DNA of 36,469 nucleotides from a virus (Duplodnaviria > Heunggongvirae > Uroviricota > Caudoviricetes), in IMG/VR virus record IMGVR_UViG_2724679138_000003; one strand, given 5' to 3'. Shown here one piece after another: positions 11,891-27,518 of this stretch. The translations under genes and the position numbers were made by a program. A model generated the notes under the pieces. That model worked only from the letters and a program-made list of their open reading frames with translations, did no database searches and was not told where the DNA came from. Position 1 is the first letter of the stretch. Each line of letters starts with the position of its first letter.

Positions 11891-12166
11891 TTACTCAATA
11901 AAGATCATTGGCTTATCGTTAAAACGTTCATGCCGTGTGACCGTCCATTGTTGTCCGTCATAAACAACGCGATCCCCGCGCCGTGGGCGGTATCCCGAAG
12001 AAAACACCACCAGAGAGACCGCAGGTCCGGACAGAGCATTCAGCTCTGCCAGTGTTTCTCCCGGGATCACAGTCATATCGACATCATTAATCGAGGCTGT
12101 CTTTCCCATCTTTCTGACCGTGATAGCATCCATACGCGCTGCCAGCCGGGAAAAGGGATCAGACAT
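11891..12166 (-). CDS. Head-tail joining protein (FII-like)
   Basis: 91 aa; position between head decoration gene and Z; ...RGDRVVYDGQQWTVTRHE... resembles the lambda FII C-terminal motif as recalled. Confidence 0.6.
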   Translation of the reverse strand: MSDPFSRLAARMDAITVRKMGKTASINDVDMTVIPGETLAELNALSGPAVSLVVFSSGYRPRRGDRVVYDGQQWTVTRHERFNDKPMIFIE

Positions 12167-12482: not shown

Positions 12483-12525
12483 AACTGTCTCCGCACAGCC
12501 CCGTTCAGGGGCTGATTTCAGGTAC

Positions 12526-12548
12526 AAAAAAAGCCCTTACGGGCCATC
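12526..12548 (-). terminator. Hairpin plus U-run just past the capsid gene, followed by a second 7-bp hairpin (12496-12514)
   Basis: Minus-strand GGCCC-gtaa-GGGCT followed by TTTTTTT; then CAGCCCC-tgaac-GGGGCTG directly before the SD of the next gene. Confidence 0.5.
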
Positions 12549-12568: not shown

Positions 12569-14527
12569 TTACGCCGTACATTTCACCAGACCGCGGTGAT
12601 CAACTGGCGCGACACCGGCGTCAATACGCACTTTCGTTGTCACGCCATCCACACTGAAGCCCTCCATCTGATCAATATATGGCGTATCCACACCGTTGAG
12701 ATAAGCCACTTCAATCGTATCGGAGCCTTTTGACGCAGCCAGGTAGAAGGTGGTCTGGCTGTTATCATCAAGACGAGGCTCTGCAATAACGGTCGCAAAA
12801 TCTTTCACCGGGTTAATAATACCGGCGTTAATGTCAGCCCCCTTGACACTTGAGGAGCGAATGACCTGGTTAGCAACAGATTCCATCGCCGTCGGTACCA
12901 GTACGAACGCAGGACGAATATTCAGATGACGCTCCCCCTCTTTCTGAACGCGCATCAACTGGCGGGCTTTATCCAGCGATGCCACGTCCATTGCAGCGCT
13001 CTCCAGTACGTTTGCATGTTTCGCTTTATCGAACAGGCTTACATTATCTGTGGAGATTTTCGGGTTAGACGTCAGAATGGCATAAACCAGATCGGCAATA
13101 GTGGATTTCGCCGCACGGCCCAGCTTCATCGGGACATCGGTCAGCATATTCAGATCATCATTGATAATGGCCTGACGGGTGATACTGAACAGCTCGCCAT
13201 AGGTCGCCAGTGCAATAGTGGCCTGTTTATCTCCGGTGGTGACGTATTTATATTCCGCCCCTTCACGCACCTGACGCAGAGCACTGAAGCCCCCCATACC
13301 CACACGATGGGCAATTTTAAAATCAGACAACTGGCCTTTCCGCGTCCACTGTTCATAGGTTTCAGGGGCATCTTCCCAGCCCTGCAGAATGGCTTTGTTC
13401 GCAACATCCAGCAGAATATTACCGAAGTCAGACGTACTGTGTGTGAACGCCGCACCGACCATCTGCATCGGGTTATAACTGGAAACCCCAATACCCCGTT
13501 CAGTCAGTGACATACGGGCATATTCACGCAGGGTCATCCCGTTGTAGACATTATCACGTTCGGTTTTTTCAAATCCGGCACGCGCCATCAGCGCCTGGCG
13601 GATCCCGTCCCCCACAAAATTACCGTTACCGGCATAAATATGAGCCGGGGTATTTTTATTGGATGGCGTGGACTCTCGCCCCATCTCGTTCAACAGCTTC
13701 TCGCGGGCCTGCTCCAGCGAACACTCAGGATCGGCAAGGCACTGAGCCTGCAGCGCCTGATAACGCCCGCCAAACATGGCAAACAGATCATTAATACCGT
13801 TTACACGCGCTTTTTGCTCTGCCAGTACCTGCGCACGGATGCTGTTTTCATCCACCACGGGTGCTGCTGCCTGCACTGGCGTCCGGGGGGCTGCTGGTTC
13901 ATCATCCGGTACGCGTGGAGCACTGTTGCGTGGCGGAGTAATCATGTTTCGAATAGATTCCGGCATCTTTTTAAATTCCTCTGTACGTTTTGACTGAATA
14001 CATGCCATTGCCTTAACGGCTGGCGTCACCTGGTCAGCAAATCCATGAGCCAGACATTCGGCTCCGGACATCCAGGTCTCATCCGCCAGCATGGCAGCAA
14101 TTTCATCGGTGGTTTTCCCGGTTTTCTGTGCATAAGCGGGTAAGAGAACCGCCTCAACTTTATCGAGCAGGTCGGCATAGGTGCGCATGTCCTCCGCATC
14201 ACCGCCCGTAAAGCCAAATGGTTTATGAATCATCATGAAAGTGTTTTCCGGCATAATGACCGGGTTTCCCACCATCGCAATGACCGACGCCATTGATGCC
14301 GCCACTCCGTCGACATAAACGGTAATGGACGCACCATGTGTTTTCAGTGCATTAAAAATGGCGATGCCTTCAAAGACATCGCCACCCGGTGAATTGATAT
14401 GGAGATTAATGTGGGTGATATCGCCCAGTGCATTCAGATCACTGATAAACTGCTTCGCCGTAACACCCCAGAAACCAATCTCGTCATAAATATAAATATC
14501 CGCGTCACTCTGATGACCAGCCTGCAT
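12569..14527 (-). CDS. Prohead protease (ClpP/S49-like) - scaffold - major capsid protein fusion
   Basis: ATG 14527 lies 13 nt past the portal stop. N-terminal domain DADIYIYDEIGFWGVTAKQF...INSPGGDVFEGIAIFNALK is ClpP-like; central Pro/Ala-rich linker; C-terminal ~300 aa is capsid-like. The track ORF is extended upstream by read-through into the portal gene. Confidence 0.75.
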   Translation of the reverse strand: MQAGHQSDADIYIYDEIGFWGVTAKQFISDLNALGDITHINLHINSPGGDVFEGIAIFNALKTHGASITVYVDGVAASMASVIAMVGNPVIMPENTFMMIHKPFGFTGGDAEDMRTYADLLDKVEAVLLPAYAQKTGKTTDEIAAMLADETWMSGAECLAHGFADQVTPAVKAMACIQSKRTEEFKKMPESIRNMITPPRNSAPRVPDDEPAAPRTPVQAAAPVVDENSIRAQVLAEQKARVNGINDLFAMFGGRYQALQAQCLADPECSLEQAREKLLNEMGRESTPSNKNTPAHIYAGNGNFVGDGIRQALMARAGFEKTERDNVYNGMTLREYARMSLTERGIGVSSYNPMQMVGAAFTHSTSDFGNILLDVANKAILQGWEDAPETYEQWTRKGQLSDFKIAHRVGMGGFSALRQVREGAEYKYVTTGDKQATIALATYGELFSITRQAIINDDLNMLTDVPMKLGRAAKSTIADLVYAILTSNPKISTDNVSLFDKAKHANVLESAAMDVASLDKARQLMRVQKEGERHLNIRPAFVLVPTAMESVANQVIRSSSVKGADINAGIINPVKDFATVIAEPRLDDNSQTTFYLAASKGSDTIEVAYLNGVDTPYIDQMEGFSVDGVTTKVRIDAGVAPVDHRGLVKCTA

Positions 14528-14540
14528 CCTGAACCAGGAA

Positions 14541-16049
14541 TTATTCTTCGGACTGGTTGTTGGTGTGCTGCGGCTCCTGTCGTTTCGTTGCGGCACTGCT
14601 ACCTCCTTTATCACTGGCCGGATCGGTATCAAATACCAGATCCAGCTTGCGGTTTTCATCAATTTCGGCCTTGCGCCGACGTTTGACATCATCCGGATTA
14701 CGACCACCAGCACGTACCCAGTCTGATTCTGTCGCCGCTCCACCACGAATCTGGATTTTCCAGGCCTCAGCCTCCTTAACAGGGTCAATCCACGGCATCA
14801 CCGGTCCGGAATACACCGCGGTATACAGTGAAGAACGGTCAAGATCGCGGGGTAGCCTGATAACACCGGATGCCACAGCCTGTTTCAGCCAGGCACGGTA
14901 CATCGGGCGGGTGACGGCACCAATAAACCAGTCCTGCAGGATCAGGTAGCCATCAGTGGATTCAACCAGCTCCTGACGCTGGGCGCTGTAAGTGCCGTTA
15001 TAGTTGCGCGCAGTACTGGAAAAACTCAGACGACTGCCAGCCGCCACTGCACGCAACTGACCATTACGAAAAGTTTCAAGATTAGGATTGGGGCGATCCG
15101 ACTTCACCATTCCGATTTCTTCGCCGGGTTTCAGATCGTCGTAAATAATGCCTGGCTGAATGGTAAGCTCGCGTTCCTTATCCTTGCTGCCATTACCATC
15201 CGGTTCATAGCTCTGCCCGTCGCCTTTGCGGATGTACATCCCCAGAGCAGCGGCGATCCTTGCTGCAGTCAGCTCAGAATCTTCATACTCTTTCAGGGCA
15301 CTGAGGCGGATCAACACACCGGACAACAAAGACGTCCCGCGCATCTGGTGCAGACGGCGAACAAATTTAAGATGCAGCATTCGCTCTGCATCCACTTCTT
15401 TGGTTTCCATCTGCCGTCCGGATACGGGACGGCTTTTATACACCAGATATTTTTCGGGACGCCCCCAGTCATCAACAAACACGCCCTGATTCAGCCTGTT
15501 GCTCTCATCACTGGTCATGGGAATAAAGTCCGGCTCGAGCGCCTCCAGCCAGAAATGAACACCGGCAGAAGGCGTCAGGCTGTTTATGCGCCCGGAAACC
15601 ATCTGGGCAAACACCTCACCATCGCGCAGCCAGGTACGCAGCATCAGACGTTCCAGCATCGGACGGGTAAACTGCCCGGTGACTTCCGGGCTGACAGACC
15701 ATTCACTCCATCGGGTGCGAATCTCCGCAGCCAGGTCACGGGCAATGGCTCCATTGCGTAATACCGGATGTGGCTCGACAATAATTCCGTTTTTCCCCAC
15801 CACCCGTTCTTCCAGCTTGTCAAATACACCAATAACCAGATCGTGGTTGTTATCAAGGTAACGGGCCTGCTCACGTAACGACACGGCCCCGTACTGGCTT
15901 AACTGGTCGGCAGTTCGGTTTTCCCGCCGGGCTTTGTGTGTCCGCGTCGTTTTTACGGCCTCATAAGCCTGGATCACCGCACGGGAACGCAGCCTTGCCG
16001 CTTTCCATCCTGGTGAAAAAACGCCAATCACATCATCAAGAATTGCCAT
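14541..16049 (-). CDS. Portal protein (lambda gpB-like)
   Basis: About 502 aa; ATG 16049 overlaps the W stop (TGATG); position between W and protease/capsid. Confidence 0.8.
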   Translation of the reverse strand: MAILDDVIGVFSPGWKAARLRSRAVIQAYEAVKTTRTHKARRENRTADQLSQYGAVSLREQARYLDNNHDLVIGVFDKLEERVVGKNGIIVEPHPVLRNGAIARDLAAEIRTRWSEWSVSPEVTGQFTRPMLERLMLRTWLRDGEVFAQMVSGRINSLTPSAGVHFWLEALEPDFIPMTSDESNRLNQGVFVDDWGRPEKYLVYKSRPVSGRQMETKEVDAERMLHLKFVRRLHQMRGTSLLSGVLIRLSALKEYEDSELTAARIAAALGMYIRKGDGQSYEPDGNGSKDKERELTIQPGIIYDDLKPGEEIGMVKSDRPNPNLETFRNGQLRAVAAGSRLSFSSTARNYNGTYSAQRQELVESTDGYLILQDWFIGAVTRPMYRAWLKQAVASGVIRLPRDLDRSSLYTAVYSGPVMPWIDPVKEAEAWKIQIRGGAATESDWVRAGGRNPDDVKRRRKAEIDENRKLDLVFDTDPASDKGGSSAATKRQEPQHTNNQSEE

Positions 16050-22189: not shown

Positions 22190-22768
22190 TTAAGCACTTT
22201 CTTGCTCACTCTGCAACTTAAATCTGTCGCTATTTGTGCCGAATGCGTCACAAACTGGAGCGTACAGGATCGATTCTGCAAGACTTAGCCAAGTGTCAAT
22301 GCGTCGACGACAGGTGATCAGCGGCCAGTCAGGATGTTTAGCCTGCAGTTCATTGGCCATCTGCAACTTGCTCTTACGAAGACGATACCGGTCAACAATC
22401 ACGCTATAGAGCGATCGGTAGTCATCATTCATCAGTACTGAAGCAATGACACCGTCCACTAACAACCCTTCTTCATCTGAACAGAACGCCAGGCCGCTTT
22501 TATTTTTGCTGTTGAGAATTTCACGCAGGTACGCTTCAAGTTCAGGCTTGGTGATACCCGCTATCTTCATCCGGCGTAGCGCTTCATTGATAGCTGTCTT
22601 GGTGATTTTCCCGGATGCCAGAAGCTGGTTAAACATGTTTCCACCACTACCACCGCCGATATAAGACCAGCGGCCCCACATGCGCAACTTGCCTTGTATC
22701 CAGATACTTTCCAGAGTACGAAGGCGAACCATTTCACCTGATTTGCCAACTTCAGAAGGATTAATCAT
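22190..22768 (-). CDS. Putative late-gene antiterminator (Q-like)
   Basis: 192 aa; position between YdfU and the terminator/lysis genes; motif LRMWGRWS resembles the W-G-x-W motif recalled for phage antitermination Q family. No zinc finger, so not lambda-type Q. Confidence 0.5.
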   Translation of the reverse strand: MINPSEVGKSGEMVRLRTLESIWIQGKLRMWGRWSYIGGGSGGNMFNQLLASGKITKTAINEALRRMKIAGITKPELEAYLREILNSKNKSGLAFCSDEEGLLVDGVIASVLMNDDYRSLYSVIVDRYRLRKSKLQMANELQAKHPDWPLITCRRRIDTWLSLAESILYAPVCDAFGTNSDRFKLQSEQESA

Positions 22769-22782
22769 TTAGCATTCTCCAC

Positions 22783-23832
22783 TTACGCCAGTACGCCTAT
22801 TGCCAGCGCACGATCGATAAAACGAAATATCAGCTCCAGCTGGGAGCCATACTTCTCTTCAAATGCCACGGTATCCGCATGCAGCTTGTCGTGATGCTTT
22901 CTGCACAAAGGCAACACAAAGAGATCATGTGCTTTGGTTCCCATTCCGCCCTGCCCGTGACCAATCAGATGATGCGGATCGTCGGCTGGCATACCGCAGC
23001 AAGCACACGGCTGTGTCTTAACCCAGCGTGTGTATTTCTCCTTAACCCAACGGTGACGTTTAGGCAGCTTCATGAAAGATTCCGGAGACTCTGGATCAAC
23101 GGTGATGCTTACCACCGTCTTTTCCTGTGATGGGTTTTGTTGCTGGTGGGCGTGAGGCAACGGTGCAAGATTTTTTGTGCGCTGTTTCAATATGCTGGTG
23201 GCGGTCTGCTCTCCCGGTACGATGTCGCTTTCGCGGTACACCGAGCAGTTTTTTTCCGCTGGTAATCCCAGCGAGCGACGTAATACCACTTCCGGTAGCG
23301 CGTCCGCCACCTGATTGCGGACCGCCCACCAGGATAATTCAGCCAGAGATAATTCACGCTCCTGCGTACCGCTTATTGCGTGACCGATGACGTCAATCAT
23401 CCATGCTGACAGGTTTTGATGAGCAAGTTGCTCGAGTGATTCGGATGTCTGGTCACGCAGCTGGTTGTCGCAGTGCCAGCACAACACCATTGCGCCGGTA
23501 CCATAACGGTGAATAACGGTTTCGCTGTGATGATAATCGCCGTGTGGCCACTGGCAGGATTTAATATGGCGCAACAGCCAGTCAGACAATGCACCAGCAC
23601 CACCAGCAGCACGAATTACCCGTGCGTTACTGAAAAACGGCAGCAATGTTTTGTCTTCCACCAGCGGCTGGCGAACGGCAGGAACGACCCCGGACGGCAG
23701 ATTACGCATGCTTTTCGGTTCCGGCTCCACCAGTACCCGGGTATTGTGGAATACCGGCATGGATTCACGGCCCGGCTTAACGACCACCAGCCCGAGTTCC
23801 GGTACCAGAACAGGTCGAAGTAATACCCGCAC
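22783..23832 (-). CDS. ydfU: YdfU-like DUF968 protein (C-terminal CxxC / HxxGxG / HH nuclease-like module)
   Basis: 349 aa; C-terminus ...QPCACCGMPADDPHHLIGHGQGG...LPLCRKHHDKLH; GTG start with GGAGG; same size and position as Qin ydfU (recalled). Confidence 0.65.
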   Translation of the reverse strand: MRVLLRPVLVPELGLVVVKPGRESMPVFHNTRVLVEPEPKSMRNLPSGVVPAVRQPLVEDKTLLPFFSNARVIRAAGGAGALSDWLLRHIKSCQWPHGDYHHSETVIHRYGTGAMVLCWHCDNQLRDQTSESLEQLAHQNLSAWMIDVIGHAISGTQERELSLAELSWWAVRNQVADALPEVVLRRSLGLPAEKNCSVYRESDIVPGEQTATSILKQRTKNLAPLPHAHQQQNPSQEKTVVSITVDPESPESFMKLPKRHRWVKEKYTRWVKTQPCACCGMPADDPHHLIGHGQGGMGTKAHDLFVLPLCRKHHDKLHADTVAFEEKYGSQLELIFRFIDRALAIGVLA

Positions 23833-23833
23833 G

Positions 23834-24112
23834 TTACCTCCAGATGCGTTGCTGGAATGTACGGGACGGACGCGGTGGGCGTTCGGAGTAAGGCAATCTG
23901 ACTGAGATTATCCAGTGACGGTAGTCGAGACTAAGAGCTTTCTTAACCTCGTATCCGCGCCTGCGGTAACACTGAATTATCCATTCAGCCTGCTCTTCAG
24001 TGCATGGAGGGTGCTGGAACCATTCAGACTTGAATGCGTGAGAATACCGCTCGTGCGTGCAGGCAAGAACGGGCGAATTATCAGAATTGTAATATTTTAC
24101 GTTGCGTGCCAT
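23834..24112 (-). CDS. Hypothetical nin-region protein (Cys/His-containing, 92 aa)
   Basis: ATG 24112 with GGAG upstream; ...LACTHERYSHAF...HPPCTEEQAEWIIQCYRRRG; tightly packed before ydfU. Confidence 0.5.
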   Translation of the reverse strand: MARNVKYYNSDNSPVLACTHERYSHAFKSEWFQHPPCTEEQAEWIIQCYRRRGYEVKKALSLDYRHWIISVRLPYSERPPRPSRTFQQRIWR

Positions 24113-24178
24113 CGGTTTTCTCCGGTGGCACGGTGTTACTCAGCGGGAGTTCAGCCCCGCGCAAGATTGTAGATGAGT

Positions 24179-24442
24179 TTATTCTTCTGCAAAAGCTGAA
24201 AAGCCTGCTTTTATTCCGATCTCTTTCAGTGCCTGTAATGAAGTGACAAACTCACCTTCGCGCAAGATAAATCCGTCTGTCACTCGACCATCCACAAAAT
24301 TAATTAACGCAGCCCCATTCTTTCGCAAACACATAATGCGGTAATGACTAACAAGATTTCCATTTTCAACGCACACAGCATAGAGGCCATCTTCACAAAA
24401 ATTTTTACGCAGTTCTTCGATGTTCATCATCATGTTCATCAT
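24179..24442 (-). CDS. Hypothetical protein (87 aa)
   Basis: ATG with GGAAGG SD; no recognizable motif. Confidence 0.45.
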   Translation of the reverse strand: MMNMMMNIEELRKNFCEDGLYAVCVENGNLVSHYRIMCLRKNGAALINFVDGRVTDGFILREGEFVTSLQALKEIGIKAGFSAFAEE

Positions 24443-24559
24443 CAGAATCCTTCCGGATAATTAGCTCTCCCCTTTAAGGGACCATCCCTCTTCTCCCTGC
24501 GCGCTACTTAAGTATTTTTGATTCTATTCCGGCACCGTCCAGAACTTCAAACGCGTTGA

Positions 24560-24590
24560 AAATAAAAACAAAAACCCGCCGAAGCGGGTT
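24560..24590 (-). terminator. Rho-independent terminator downstream of hokD
   Basis: Minus-strand AACCCGC-ttcg-GCGGGTT followed by TTTGTTTTTATTTT; a perfect 9-bp hairpin (GGCGAGGGA-tttc-TCCCTCGCC, 24630-24651) lies between it and the hokD stop. Confidence 0.7.
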
Positions 24591-26063: not shown

Positions 26064-26819
26064 CTATTGTTTTAATAACATTTCAAAATCCTCATTCCAG
26101 TGCGTGTTTTGTGAAATACGGGTATCAATTTCATCAAGCAGCATATCATGAGAAAGTATGCTTAAAGGGTCATTCCCATTTTTACCAAAACGCATCGTAG
26201 TTTCTGCTATTTCCCAATCTTCTGCGCTGATTGATGGCTGTATTGCATGGCAGTAGATAGCCTTCACATCCTTTTCATGACAGTCAAAATTATTGATGCT
26301 TTCTGCAATTTTACGAGCTCTTTCAATTTCGACAACTGGACCATGTAAAGTTTCATATGATATATGCACAATTGTAGGGGTATTATCTGGAACCTGTCGT
26401 ACCGCTTTGCTTAAGTGCGTTTTAATATCTTTTGCTTTTTTATTAATCGATTCCTCTGCTATACATTCCCAACGAGCACAGTAACCAGAGTGTATTCCAG
26501 TGCAAAAAATGTTAAGTATATCAACACCGTCGTCCGGACCTACTCGTACAAGTCCTTTTGGGGCACAAAGATGAGTGTAATTTTCGCTGCTGCTAAAACT
26601 TCCGGCCAACAACGAAACCATCTGTGGAGAGTTCCATTTAACCATGTATTTATCAAAATGCTCATTGATATTTTTCATATCTATTCTATTAATCAGTATT
26701 ATAATTTCATCATTTTCTATTCTCAGTGACTTTCTCGTCGAGATATTAGACTTTATTTCATTGAAGATTTTTGCTAAAATATATTCATCTGTATCTTTTA
26801 CTTCAACCTTGAAAAGCAC
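26064..26819 (-). CDS. Island ORF B (251 codons), unknown function; possibly the C-terminal part of a gene split by a TAA
   Basis: Same frame as ORF A with only one TAA (26886-26888) and 22 sense codons between them; no ATG or SD of its own (track start is GTG 26819); AT-rich codon usage. Confidence 0.5.
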   Translation of the reverse strand: MLFKVEVKDTDEYILAKIFNEIKSNISTRKSLRIENDEIIILINRIDMKNINEHFDKYMVKWNSPQMVSLLAGSFSSSENYTHLCAPKGLVRVGPDDGVDILNIFCTGIHSGYCARWECIAEESINKKAKDIKTHLSKAVRQVPDNTPTIVHISYETLHGPVVEIERARKIAESINNFDCHEKDVKAIYCHAIQPSISAEDWEIAETTMRFGKNGNDPLSILSHDMLLDEIDTRISQNTHWNEDFEMLLKQ

Positions 26820-26885: not shown

Positions 26886-27518
26886 TTATCGACGCTCATT
26901 TTCAGAATATTCAGTCACTTTAGATAAACGCTTACATTCCACAAAAAAGCTTTCTTCACCTTTAGTAACTTTTAAATCAGGAGTTTTATTTAATGCTGTT
27001 TCTGGAATAAATTCTACTCTATAACCATTGCGCGCATACATAATCGCAACAACTAATTCAAACAATGTTGAATCAGGTTGATTTATTTTACCGTTAAGAA
27101 ATTCCGAAAGTTTTTCATCAATCCCAACAATTTTTTTTGCAAGCTCAATATGTCTTCCAACAGCCGCAAAAAAGGGAAATACTCGGGCTGATTGCGCTAA
27201 CTCGCTAACTAAAGGCCGTTCATGTAAGCATTCTACAAGAAAAAGATACCATGCAACCCAATCCTCATGAAATGCCACCCTATTTTTTGGCTCTTCCATA
27301 CTCTTCATTGCTTGGTCAAAATTCTTATAGGTGTTATCTTCCTGTTCTCTGAAGTACTTGACTACATTTTTTTTGCGAGTCTCCCAAGTATCCTTTTCCA
27401 GATAAGATAAAAACCAGTCCAATGCAATTTTCGTATGATGATGCCAGGGACTGGTATCCGTTGCTGCAAAAATCTCTTGTAGTTCTTTTGAATATTCCAA
27501 TGTCTGTGTGTTAGCCAT
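26886..27518 (-). CDS. Island ORF A (210 aa), unknown function with C-terminal PD-(D/E)xK-like motif
   Basis: ATG 27518 with GAGG 6 nt upstream; C-terminal ...LFELVVAIMYARNGYRVEFIPETALNKTPDLKVTKGEESFFVECKRL has helix-E, PD, and hydrophobic-ExK spacing typical of the restriction-endonuclease fold. Confidence 0.6.
   Translation of the reverse strand: MANTQTLEYSKELQEIFAATDTSPWHHHTKIALDWFLSYLEKDTWETRKKNVVKYFREQEDNTYKNFDQAMKSMEEPKNRVAFHEDWVAWYLFLVECLHERPLVSELAQSARVFPFFAAVGRHIELAKKIVGIDEKLSEFLNGKINQPDSTLFELVVAIMYARNGYRVEFIPETALNKTPDLKVTKGEESFFVECKRLSKVTEYSENERR

Follow-up and report, generated by a model that had tools for sequence, protein, structure and literature searches.

The Salmonella phage Gifsy-2 is said to have been the subject of a cryo-EM study by Effantin et al. 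2010 (Virology 402:355) that deals with a "tripartite capsid gene", and its capsid reportedly has T=7 geometry, with a mature shell built from the C-terminal fragment of the gene product and a trimeric decoration protein at the three-fold positions. In that genome (NC_010393) the gene (CDS 22471–24561) specifies a protein with 70% full-length identity to the product of the gene examined here, which lies in a DNA stretch of 36,469 nucleotides (the window; IMG/VR virus record IMGVR_UViG_2724679138_000003). The two genes share the same order of a ClpP-like protease, a central domain and a capsid protein, and their neighbors match as well, with a lambda-family portal gene upstream and, downstream, a small protein followed by a head–tail joining gene; the small Gifsy-2 protein in the position of the decoration gene is 61% identical to its counterpart in the window and is annotated there as a conserved hypothetical protein. 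Gifsy-2 differs in its host and in the sequence and length of the linker. Passages in two papers describe the protease and coat genes of Gifsy-2 as fused (PMC12315714) and its decoration protein as trimeric (PMC8538268). In the Pseudomonas phage MD8, gp5 combines protease, scaffold and capsid in one 693-residue product (PMC8508860); the paper on this phage contains no virion proteomics for it, does not consider an internal start, and cites Shaw and Murialdo 1980 for the C/Nu3 genes of lambda. MD8 resembles the present case in its lambdoid genome and three-in-one gene and is more distant in sequence, and the Pseudomonas phage CF165a, which is related to MD8, encodes a protein with 57% identity to the window protein over its full length.

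In the lambda C/Nu3, Mu I/Z and herpesvirus UL26/UL26.5 genes, an in-frame internal start gives rise to a scaffold protein that lacks the protease but has the same C-terminus as the protease-bearing long form. The first-pass annotation of the window had set its single ORF against separate C and Nu3 genes in lambda, a contrast that is smaller than claimed, because C and Nu3 are nested rather than separate. With a protease that is ClpP/S14-like rather than of the S49 type found in lambda, the window gene is not a member of the C/Nu3 family; a Shine-Dalgarno (SD) sequence and ATG at codon 211 suggest that the same principle might nevertheless apply, with the difference that the C-terminal portion common to both forms would here comprise the capsid protein. 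The likeness to HK97 lies in an HK97-fold shell protein preceded by an N-terminal helical scaffold-like domain, and the extension carried by the predicted short product of the window gene would be ~115 residues long, versus 102 for the HK97 delta domain (PMC8508860). HK97 differs in that its protease is the product of a separate gene of another family and in that its shell is stabilized by covalent cross-links and not by a decoration protein; the cement gene of the window suggests stabilization by means other than Lys–Asn chainmail cross-links.

The window gene is a head-assembly gene of an E. coli lambdoid prophage of the Gifsy-2/mEp460 type that occupies the Qin site, and the fusion is already catalogued: it is an ordinary member of NCBIfam NF045540 ([quoted passage not shown]), which it matches over model positions 2–651 of 652 with 986.7 bits, the curated cutoff being 475 bits. 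Phages mEp460, cdtI, Ayreon and Tritos carry the gene with 98–99% DNA identity, the copy in E. coli EC93 is 100% identical (PGAP gives it as a 2028-nt CDS bearing the NF045540 family name), and of 5426 complete E. coli genomes examined, 2003 contain the gene. In mEp460, EC93 and other such records the flanking genes and the terminator that they annotate are as in the window, and the records differ only in the start codon (652 vs 675 codons). There is no stop codon between the protease and capsid domains, and the ORF is unbroken in 77/83 and 78/80 related loci that span 41–100% identity, the exceptions examined being contig ends or decayed copies; because of this continuity the protease–capsid fusion is, as judged by comparison, kept under selection. 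The first-pass description of one ~652-codon ORF carrying protease, linker and capsid is thus upheld, and two of the checks that it had proposed, domain annotation and comparison with related prophages, confirmed the fused architecture. Three N-terminally truncated copies (L040, L042 and L045) were considered as natural protease-less variants and were rejected as such, since they represent an internal deletion and rearranged prophage remnants. A PADLOC scan of the low-GC ORFs gave no significant match.

The reading frame is open on the minus strand from 14788 to a TAA at 12571–12569 and would comprise 652 codons from ATG 14527, the start implied by the span (12569-14527) first assigned to the gene. 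The 3' end of that span stands, but the true start is probably GTG 14596, 69 nt farther upstream, which overlaps the 3' end of the portal gene by 56 nt, has a predicted anti-SD duplex of -12.9 kcal/mol and is found with an identical SD in phage Eeyore (Table 1). Several observations led us to reject ATG 14527 as the start: its SD duplex amounts to only -2.6 kcal/mol and is not usable; Trp21, upstream of this codon, is nearly invariant in the alignments of relatives; residue 24, which the ATG specifies, is Ile in most distant relatives and is not Met in the Gifsy-2 protein; and the AlphaFold model confidently assigns residues 22–26 to a beta-strand. The conflict among public records over the start is thus one in which the comparison favors the longer form.

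Table 1. Coordinates of the fusion gene, its predicted parts and its neighbors in the window
Feature	Coordinates	Strand	Basis or remark
Lambda-family portal gene	14541..16049	-	PF05136, E = 6.4e-82; immediately upstream of fusion gene
Shine-Dalgarno AAGGAGGT	14601..14608	-	ends 4 nt ahead of GTG 14596
Full-length ORF, protease–linker–scaffold–capsid	12569..14596	-	675 codons + TAA, 73.5 kDa
ATG of 652-codon form, probably internal Met24	14525..14527	-	start in mEp460 GenBank record
ClpP-like (S14) protease domain, residues ~20–192 of 675 form	14021..14539	-	Pfam CLP_protease, NF045542
Predicted catalytic Ser101	14294–14296	-	alignment
Predicted catalytic His124	14225–14227	-	alignment
Predicted catalytic Asp188	14033–14035	-	alignment
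Internal Shine-Dalgarno-like core AGGA (in gAGGAa)	13977..13980	-	10 nt upstream of internal ATG
Conserved in-frame ATG, Met211 (675 form) / Met188 (652 form)	13964..13966	-	putative second initiation site
Putative nested linker–scaffold–capsid product without protease	12569..13966	-	465 residues, 50.6 kDa
Pro/Ala-rich hypervariable disordered linker, residues ~220–248 of 675 form	13853..13939	-	composition, alignment, pLDDT
Three-helix scaffold-like domain, residues ~250–310	13667..13849	-	AlphaFold model
Disordered junction, residues 312–324	13625..13663	-	pLDDT <50
HK97-fold major capsid domain, residues ~327–675	12572..13618	-	Pfam, Foldseek
Intrinsic-terminator-like hairpin GGCCC-GTAA-GGGCT then T7	12525..12545	-	24 nt after stop
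Second hairpin CAGCCCC-TGAAC-GGGGCTG	12496..12514	-	ends 3 nt before decoration-gene SD
Decoration-gene Shine-Dalgarno GGAG	12489–12492	-	just after second hairpin
Head decoration (cement) protein gene, 107 aa	12159..12482	-	PF09956, PHROG 122

By alignment and model, the N-terminal part is a serine protease of the ClpP fold in which the Ser-His-Asp triad is conserved. Pfam CLP_protease matches residues 23–168 (652 numbering) with E = 4.5e-36, and Foldseek aligns the AlphaFold model of the whole protein to solved ClpP structures with TM scores of 0.70–0.81, normalized to the target. The predicted catalytic Ser101 and His124 are invariant both in an alignment of 15 sequences (A1), where Asp188 is nearly so, and in one of 75 sequences (A3), where Asp188 is absent from the list of conserved columns. 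The domain had at first been called "ClpP/S49-like", and only the ClpP half of that label survives, since the best models are ClpP/S14 and SppA_dom (S49), whose cutoff is 155 bits, scores 22.4. The Pro/Ala-rich linker, also proposed in the first reading, is borne out by a Pro+Ala content of 37–40% in 30-residue segments over ~residues 191–240 (652 numbering), as compared with 7–20% in most segments elsewhere and never more than 27% there; the linker is the hypervariable, indel-rich stretch of the family alignment, and its residues 221–247 (675 numbering) have a pLDDT below 50 in the AlphaFold model.

Beyond the linker the model places three helices (residues 250–273, 280–288 and 294–308), with mean pLDDT values of 76–93 for 10-residue blocks across residues 251–310, and Arg264, Phe272 and Pro311 are invariant in the alignments. 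By analogy with the delta domain of HK97, we infer that this three-helix domain may serve as a scaffold, and maturation cleavage is likely in the junction region that follows, at predicted residues 312–326. The assignment of a capsid-like domain to the C-terminus was confirmed by Pfam Phage_capsid_4 (residues 354–649 in the 652 numbering, E = 1.2e-54). When the PDB was searched by sequence, the capsid part had no more than distant Mu gpT-like matches (E ~3e-4) and the decoration protein had none; for this reason AlphaFold models were used to test the folds. Since Foldseek returned nothing but ClpP matches for the whole-protein model, a second model was built, of the predicted short product (pLDDT 85.9, pTM 0.71), and this one matched phage capsid proteins, among them those of HK97 (Head II, 2ft1), D3 and phiXacJX1, as well as encapsulins with a Foldseek probability of 1.00.

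The best explanation of the locus, to which we would give a probability of roughly 0.65 on comparative grounds, is that the catalogued fusion gene is translated from two starts, GTG 14596 and ATG 13966. The internal ATG is present in all 77 loci of the first set that was compared and in 149 of 151 distinct ORFs, and in each of those 149 an AGGA or GGAG core lies 5–12 nt upstream of it, whereas an SD-like core in the 77-locus set has a mean per-column frequency of 4.5%, and one of 58% at the next best site. The two relatives that lack this Met have an SD and ATG 20–31 codons downstream, in the linker. The internal SD and ATG are kept in relatives down to 41% protein identity, and the same ATG is shared by Gifsy-2 ("EEFEH-MPQSIK", with gag gag upstream). 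Synonymous variability at the internal start falls to 0.49, compared to a mean of 0.82 (sd 0.07); this is the minimum for the gene and is as low as in the stretch that overlaps the portal gene. The 60-nt mRNA segment at the internal ATG lies, at the median, within the least structured 1.6% of the segments of its own ORF, and within the lowest 10% of structure in 144 of 149 ORFs. The predicted duplex of the internal SD (-6.0 kcal/mol) is similar to those for the decoration (-6.6) and portal (-7.1) genes, but the 10-nt spacing of its core is at the long end of the normal range. From the conserved SD and ATG, the low synonymous variation and the unstructured mRNA we infer a nested product of 465 residues, and it seems reasonably probable that internal initiation at ATG 13966 is real and yields a protease-less scaffold–capsid protein.

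The most serious competitor, which we regard as unlikely, is that there is strictly a single polypeptide, that every subunit is the full fusion, and that the AGGA and ATG reflect a constraint on the protein or another role, such as a translational pause giving the protease domain time to fold. The uninterrupted ORF throughout the family agrees with this, as does the presence of only one product in public annotations: no nested product is listed in the GenBank/RefSeq annotations inspected or in PMC8508860, which treats the MD8 gene as having a single product (Effantin et al. 2010 is outside this comparison). By a rough volume estimate, moreover, all 415 protease-bearing subunits would fit into a T=7 procapsid, so that a shorter product is not physically required. 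The internal SD core is partly encoded by conserved acidic residues; a constraint at the level of the protein nevertheless leaves the usage of codon -5 unexplained, as this codon is fixed as xAG (GAG 43 and GAA 0, AAG 12 and AAA 0, CAG 13 and CAA 0) even though the residue that it encodes may be E, Q or K. A pause site, for its part, would need neither an invariant ATG at a fixed spacing nor locally unstructured mRNA, and neither version accounts for the replacement of a lost ATG by another SD and ATG nearby in the linker.

Much less probable is the idea that the internal SD and ATG are the disused relic of a separate scaffold–capsid gene that became fused to an upstream protease gene. In many phages, ClpP-like protease and capsid proteins are encoded by adjacent separate genes, as most of 1660 tblastn hits extend over the protease part only, and it is therefore plausible that a lost stop codon joined them. 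A relic would decay, however, whereas this element is kept in 149 of 149 ORFs down to 41% identity, with synonymous change suppressed, and has been re-created at a shifted position in both exceptions. We give practically no weight to the view that the long ORF is an artefact, a decayed gene or the product of a programmed frameshift, which could appeal to truncated copies and to 1159-residue "portal plus fusion" proteins in the databases, because the truncated copies arose by deletion or are what rearrangement has left, the fusion is intact in viable sequenced phages and in the 2003 complete E. coli genomes, the 1159-residue proteins change frame at differing positions and are therefore errors or decay rather than a programmed event, and the codons of the candidate slippery run (T AAA AAG) beside the internal SD vary among relatives.

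The preferred reading of two starts modifies what the first-pass annotation meant by a "single polypeptide": there is a single ORF, but the comparative data favor an added start at codon 211 over a sole product. That annotation had named an internal start or frameshift dividing the ORF into separate protease and capsid genes as evidence against its claim; the comparison points to an internal start that does not split the ORF, because the protease would be made only as the full-length fusion, and the frameshift was rejected. The element may extend beyond this family. In a second fusion family, whose protease domain is unrelated, an SD and ATG ("MP…") are often found at the same junction, and some ten (~10) of its distant members, which could be cited in favor of the single polypeptide, have no obvious SD and ATG there. 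Residues 197–649 of the window protein match NF045541 ("prohead protease/major capsid protein fusion protein") with 401 bits; since the cutoff is 525, the window protein is not a member, but its scaffold–capsid part is homologous to that of NF045541. Gp8 of the Stenotrophomonas phage S1 and the Synechococcus phage MinM1 protein are NF045541-like in architecture. They resemble the window in having a decoration gene after the fusion gene and an SD and ATG ("M(P)…") right after the protease domain, and differ in that their N-terminal protease domains are unrelated to the ClpP-like one of the window.

Downstream of the stop codon, the first hairpin combines the sequence features of an intrinsic terminator, namely a G+C-rich hairpin, a U-run and a location downstream of a stop, and it is annotated as a rho-independent terminator in the mEp460 record. 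All 29 enterobacterial relatives that were aligned keep its GCCC-N4-GGGC-T7 pattern unchanged, and of 151 relatives 84 have a terminator-like hairpin after the stop, as opposed to 105 of 3540 control segments. It had been called a "strong hairpin terminator"; the terminator-like hairpin is there, but its stem of four G-C pairs and one G-U does not warrant "strong", and the likeliest role for it and the T-run is partial termination, or stabilization of an mRNA 3' end, within the late operon. Of 47 distinct relatives, 46 have a hairpin of at least 5 bp at the position of the second hairpin, and their stems come in 28 different sequences, as counted by a scan of each sequence (RNAalifold on the intergenic alignment had misaligned it). 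The next gene encodes, as had been suggested, a DUF2190-like decoration protein: PF09956 Phage_cement_2 (the former DUF2190) matches residues 21–120 with 74 bits (gathering threshold 24 bits), and PHROG 122 ("head decoration") with E = 3e-47. Its start is ATG 12482 rather than the TTG of the longest ORF, which gives it the length of mEp460 gp06. The head module had also been described as mosaic relative to a lambda-like tail. The tail genes are indeed of the lambda-type families Z, U, V, G, T, H, M and J, but the break is narrower than was supposed, as the large terminase, with GpA domains, and the portal, with Phage_portal_2 (a 1509-nt CDS in the mEp460 and EC93 records), are lambda-type too.

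A scheme for assembly can be drawn by analogy with HK97, lambda and the Gifsy-2 study. GTG 14596 would give rise to the 73.5-kDa protease–scaffold–capsid fusion and ATG 13966 to the 50.6-kDa scaffold–capsid protein; the short form would be the main shell subunit, and the full-length form would deliver a limited number of proteases into the procapsid. Starting at the portal, the capsid domains would assemble into a T=7 procapsid for which the helical domain would provide an internal scaffold in the manner of HK97 delta, and the tethered protease would thereby be carried inside. The majority of shell subunits would in that case be HK97 gp5-like, and a protease would come in with only some of them. 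After assembly, the protease would remove itself along with the linker and scaffold, probably by cutting near residues 312–326, leaving a mature shell protein of roughly 38–40 kDa, and after expansion trimers of the downstream DUF2190 decoration protein might cement the shell.

As it stands, the finding is one of routine annotation, given the curated NCBI model, the 2010 Gifsy-2 study and the presence of the gene in over one third of the complete E. coli genomes. If the internal start is used, it would explain how a single ORF can provide ~415 shell subunits and far fewer proteases. A nested CDS would in that case be missing from the annotations of thousands of prophages, and the principle known from C/Nu3 and UL26/UL26.5 would be extended to the capsid protein itself in this family and in many members of the second one.

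In the window's minus strand, a frame without stops runs from position 14788 to the TAA at 12571–12569, and in it the first-pass annotation had placed a single ORF for a protease, a Pro/Ala-rich linker and a capsid domain, with 652 codons if counted from the ATG at 14527. The Pfam matches, CLP_protease at residues 23–168 (E = 4.5e-36) and Phage_capsid_4 at residues 354–649 (E = 1.2e-54; both in the numbering of the 652-residue form), agree with that description, as does the composition of the stretch between the two domains, where 30-residue windows contain 37–40% Pro plus Ala against 7–20% in most others. The same stretch is the hypervariable, indel-rich section of the family alignment. The protein scores 986.7 bits (cutoff 475) against NCBIfam NF045540, [quoted passage not shown], and PHROG 133 aligns with it end to end. 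The gene is thus a catalogued member of a known family, and the finding, correct as it is, is ordinary for that reason.

Phages mEp460, cdtI, Ayreon, Tritos and others share 98–99% DNA identity with the window over a 2.8-kb region, and 2003 of 5426 complete E. coli genomes carry the gene at a coverage of at least 80%. The copy in E. coli EC93, to which PGAP applies the NF045540 name, is 100% identical and belongs to a prophage at the Qin locus (ydfJ, ydfK, dicB, hokD). The Gifsy-2 protein is 70% identical over its full length, and the "tripartite capsid gene" of that phage was reportedly examined by cryo-EM by Effantin et al. in 2010. Two papers that cite this work mention fused prohead protease and coat genes in Gifsy-2 (PMC12315714) and a trimeric decoration protein at its three-fold axes (PMC8538268); Pseudomonas MD8-like phages have a three-in-one gene of the same kind (PMC8508860). 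An exhaustive HMMER search at E ≤ 1e-30 yielded 7061 cluster representatives; among the best 150, full-length fusions of 640–740 residues predominate. Of 83 genome loci and 80 viral-contig loci from Enterobacterales, Pseudomonas, Pasteurellaceae, Shewanella and others, 77 and 78, respectively, have the single ORF intact; the exceptions examined are contig ends, one deletion and rearranged prophage remnants. At three related loci (L040, L042 and L045) the protease is missing its N-terminal 100–120 residues; one copy has an internal deletion, and the other two adjoin unrelated tail-gene fragments and are therefore rearranged remnants.

An AlphaFold model built from a 75-sequence alignment (pLDDT 83) divides the protein into the segments listed in the table. 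Superposition of its protease part on solved ClpP structures gave target-normalised TM scores of 0.70–0.81. Neither Ser101 nor His124 varies in the two protein alignments (15 and 75 sequences); Asp188 is nearly invariant in the smaller and absent from the conserved columns of the larger. Of the initial label "ClpP/S49-like", the ClpP half holds and the S49 half is dropped. A second model, of residues 211–675 (pLDDT 85.9, pTM 0.71), matched HK97-fold capsid proteins and encapsulins with a Foldseek probability of 1.00, HK97 Head II, phage D3 and phiXacJX1 among them. By sequence, a PDB search with the capsid part found only remote Mu gpT-like relatives, and one with the decoration protein found no relative.

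Features of the window and of related loci
Feature	Position	Strand	Remarks
Portal 3' end/fusion gene 5' end overlap	14541-14596	minus	56 nt, different frames
Internal ATG	13966–13964	minus	codon 211 of 675 form; Met188 of 652 form
Terminator-like hairpin	24 nt 3' of fusion stop	minus	GGCCC-GTAA-GGGCT then T7; from sequence
Second hairpin	12496-12514	minus	CAGCCCC-TGAAC-GGGGCTG; between terminator-like hairpin and decoration gene
Decoration gene	12482–12159	minus	107 aa; PF09956 Phage_cement_2 (former DUF2190); PHROG 122 "head decoration"
Small gene 3' of decoration gene	11891-12166	minus	Pfam PF13856 "Gifsy-2"
DUF1133 protein gene	22190-22768	minus	weak Q-antiterminator match
DUF968/HNH-like protein gene	22783-23832	minus	ydfU type
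ORF in low-G+C island	26064-26819	minus	C-terminal half of phrog_37220
Adjacent ORF in low-G+C island	26886-27518	minus	N-terminal half of phrog_37220
Disordered N-terminus	residues 1–19 of 675 form		AlphaFold model
Folded protease	residues about 20–192 of 675 form		AlphaFold model
Pair of short helices	residues 203–219 of 675 form		AlphaFold model
Disordered linker	residues 221–247 of 675 form		AlphaFold model
Three helices	residues 250–308 of 675 form		AlphaFold model
Second disordered segment	residues 312–324 of 675 form		AlphaFold model
Capsid domain	residues 327–675 of 675 form		AlphaFold model
Stenotrophomonas phage S1 gp8	L167:2002-3984		second fusion family
Synechococcus phage MinM1	L166:2380-4446		second fusion family
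Further viral-contig members	loci L197-L243		second fusion family

The 652-codon frame and its 3' end stand as first described, and the 5' end is moved by a 69-nt extension to the GTG at 14596 (675 codons), the start chosen by PGAP and most database clusters; the ATG at 14527 is also the start in the mEp460 GenBank record. The evidence favours the GTG. Upstream of it lies AAGGAGGT, for which the predicted anti-SD duplex energy is -12.9 kcal/mol; the value for the ATG is only -2.6 kcal/mol. At the ATG position Met is absent from Gifsy-2 and Pseudomonas CF165a, which share an SW[FY] motif upstream of it. In a set of 126 representatives with 36–60% identity, about 77 have a residue at position 21, and in 55 of them it is Trp; at position 24, Ile (49 sequences) far outnumbers Met (13). 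In the modelled protease fold, residues 22–26 make up a confident beta-strand. With this start the ORF overlaps the last 56 nt of the portal gene. Portal–protease–capsid chimeras of 1159 residues exist in public databases (P0006-P0017), but their frame shifts lie at differing positions, so that we regard them as sequencing errors or decayed prophages and reject programmed frameshifting from the portal gene into the fusion gene.

A search for an internal start that might divide the gene found an ORF that is still uninterrupted and, within it, a conserved start signature at codon 211. When 77 aligned ORFs were scanned for in-frame start codons with an SD-like sequence upstream, this ATG and its SD-like core were present in all 77, and the runner-up internal column in 37. 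Gene-wide, an AGGA/GGAG/GAGG core 5–12 nt upstream occurs at a mean of 4.5% per column (99th percentile 44%); at the next best site the figure is 58%. Five codons 5' of the ATG the residue is Glu, Gln or Lys and the codon always xAG (GAG 43, GAA 0; AAG 12, AAA 0; CAG 13, CAA 0), whereas the ORF-wide fractions are 0.43 for GAG, 0.37 for AAG and 0.69 for CAG. A non-synonymous first position that is free and a synonymous third position that is fixed are the reverse of a protein-level constraint. When the set was extended to 151 distinct ORFs of 41–100% identity, Met stood in this column in 149, always with an SD core, and the other two had an SD and ATG 20–31 codons deeper in the linker. Synonymous variability is lowest at codons 200–208, where the ratio drops to 0.49 (mean 0.82, sd 0.07), and the only comparable dip, at codons 4–13, overlaps the portal gene and serves as a positive control. 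The 60-nt mRNA window at the internal ATG lies, in the median, among the least-structured 1.6% of its own ORF's windows; for 144 of the 149 ORFs it is within the bottom 10%. The SD duplex energy in the window (-6.0 kcal/mol) is comparable with those of the decoration gene (-6.6) and the portal gene (-7.1). A slippery site near this position is rejected because the downstream codons vary among relatives. Judging from these sequence signals, we put the probability that the conserved start is used for translation at roughly 0.6; its product would be a nested linker–scaffold–capsid protein of 465 residues (50.6 kDa). The GenBank and RefSeq annotations inspected and PMC8508860 make no mention of such a start, the primary Gifsy-2 paper lying outside this comparison.

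A second family of fusions joins a non-ClpP prohead protease, unrelated to the protease domain of the window protein, to a homologous scaffold–capsid part, again with a DUF2190 decoration gene 3' of it. GGAG or AGGAGG followed by ATG ("MP…") is frequent at the domain junction of this family, the same junction as in the window gene, and about ten distant members lack it.

The hairpin first noted as a terminator 3' of the fusion gene is present as a stem with T7, and the mEp460 record labels hairpin and T-run as a terminator. GCCC-N4-GGGC-T7 is unchanged in 29 aligned enterobacterial relatives, and 84 of 151 relatives have a terminator-like hairpin no more than 90 nt past the stop, compared with 105 of 3540 control windows; the stem/loop combinations number 54. 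The second hairpin ends 3 nt ahead of the decoration gene Shine-Dalgarno; 46 of 47 distinct relatives have a hairpin of at least 5 bp at this place with 28 different stems, and it is therefore conserved in structure rather than in sequence. It might stabilise the mRNA or keep that Shine-Dalgarno exposed. Genes for a DUF1133 and a DUF968/HNH-like protein precede the lysis genes; with a Q-like antiterminator, late transcription would be able to pass the hairpin 3' of the capsid gene.

The DUF2190-like decoration gene was likewise recognised by its PF09956 and PHROG 122 matches. Its stop codon is overlapped by the ATG of the PF13856 gene (ATGTCTGA), whose position and weak Phage_attach match fit a putative head–tail joining protein; the Pfam description, "ATP-binding sugar transporter from pro-phage", is seemingly a misnomer. 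The tail genes (Z, U, V with a Big_2 domain, G, T, tape measure, M, I, J) are of lambda type. The small terminase (DUF1441), the protease–scaffold–capsid gene, the decoration protein and the head–tail joining protein are not. The head module is accordingly mosaic, as had been proposed, but the break is narrower than one between head and tail, since the portal and both large terminase domains are also lambda-type. Gifsy-2 was counted by the ChaoS9 authors among phages with head and tail modules from different virus types (PMC6471424). Elsewhere, two adjacent ORFs in an island of 35–39% G+C match the two halves of phrog_37220 (461 positions, unknown function), where the related prophage of EC93 carries one gene of 1455 nt; in the window that gene therefore appears to have been broken in two, whether by frameshift, stop codon or sequencing error. 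Neither ORF has a Pfam match or a significant PADLOC match.

Drawing on established knowledge of HK97 and lambda and on what the citing papers say of Gifsy-2, we can propose how the head might assemble. Capsid domains would come together on the portal to form a T=7 procapsid, with the helical domain acting as internal scaffold in the manner of the HK97 delta domain; the N-terminal extension would be about 115 residues in the predicted short product, compared with 102 in the delta domain. Co-assembly of full-length molecules would bring the protease inside, where it would cleave off the N-terminal parts, probably within disordered residues 312–326, and trimers of the DUF2190 cement protein would bind the shell after expansion. 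The conserved internal start is the single lead here that deserves a test at the bench.
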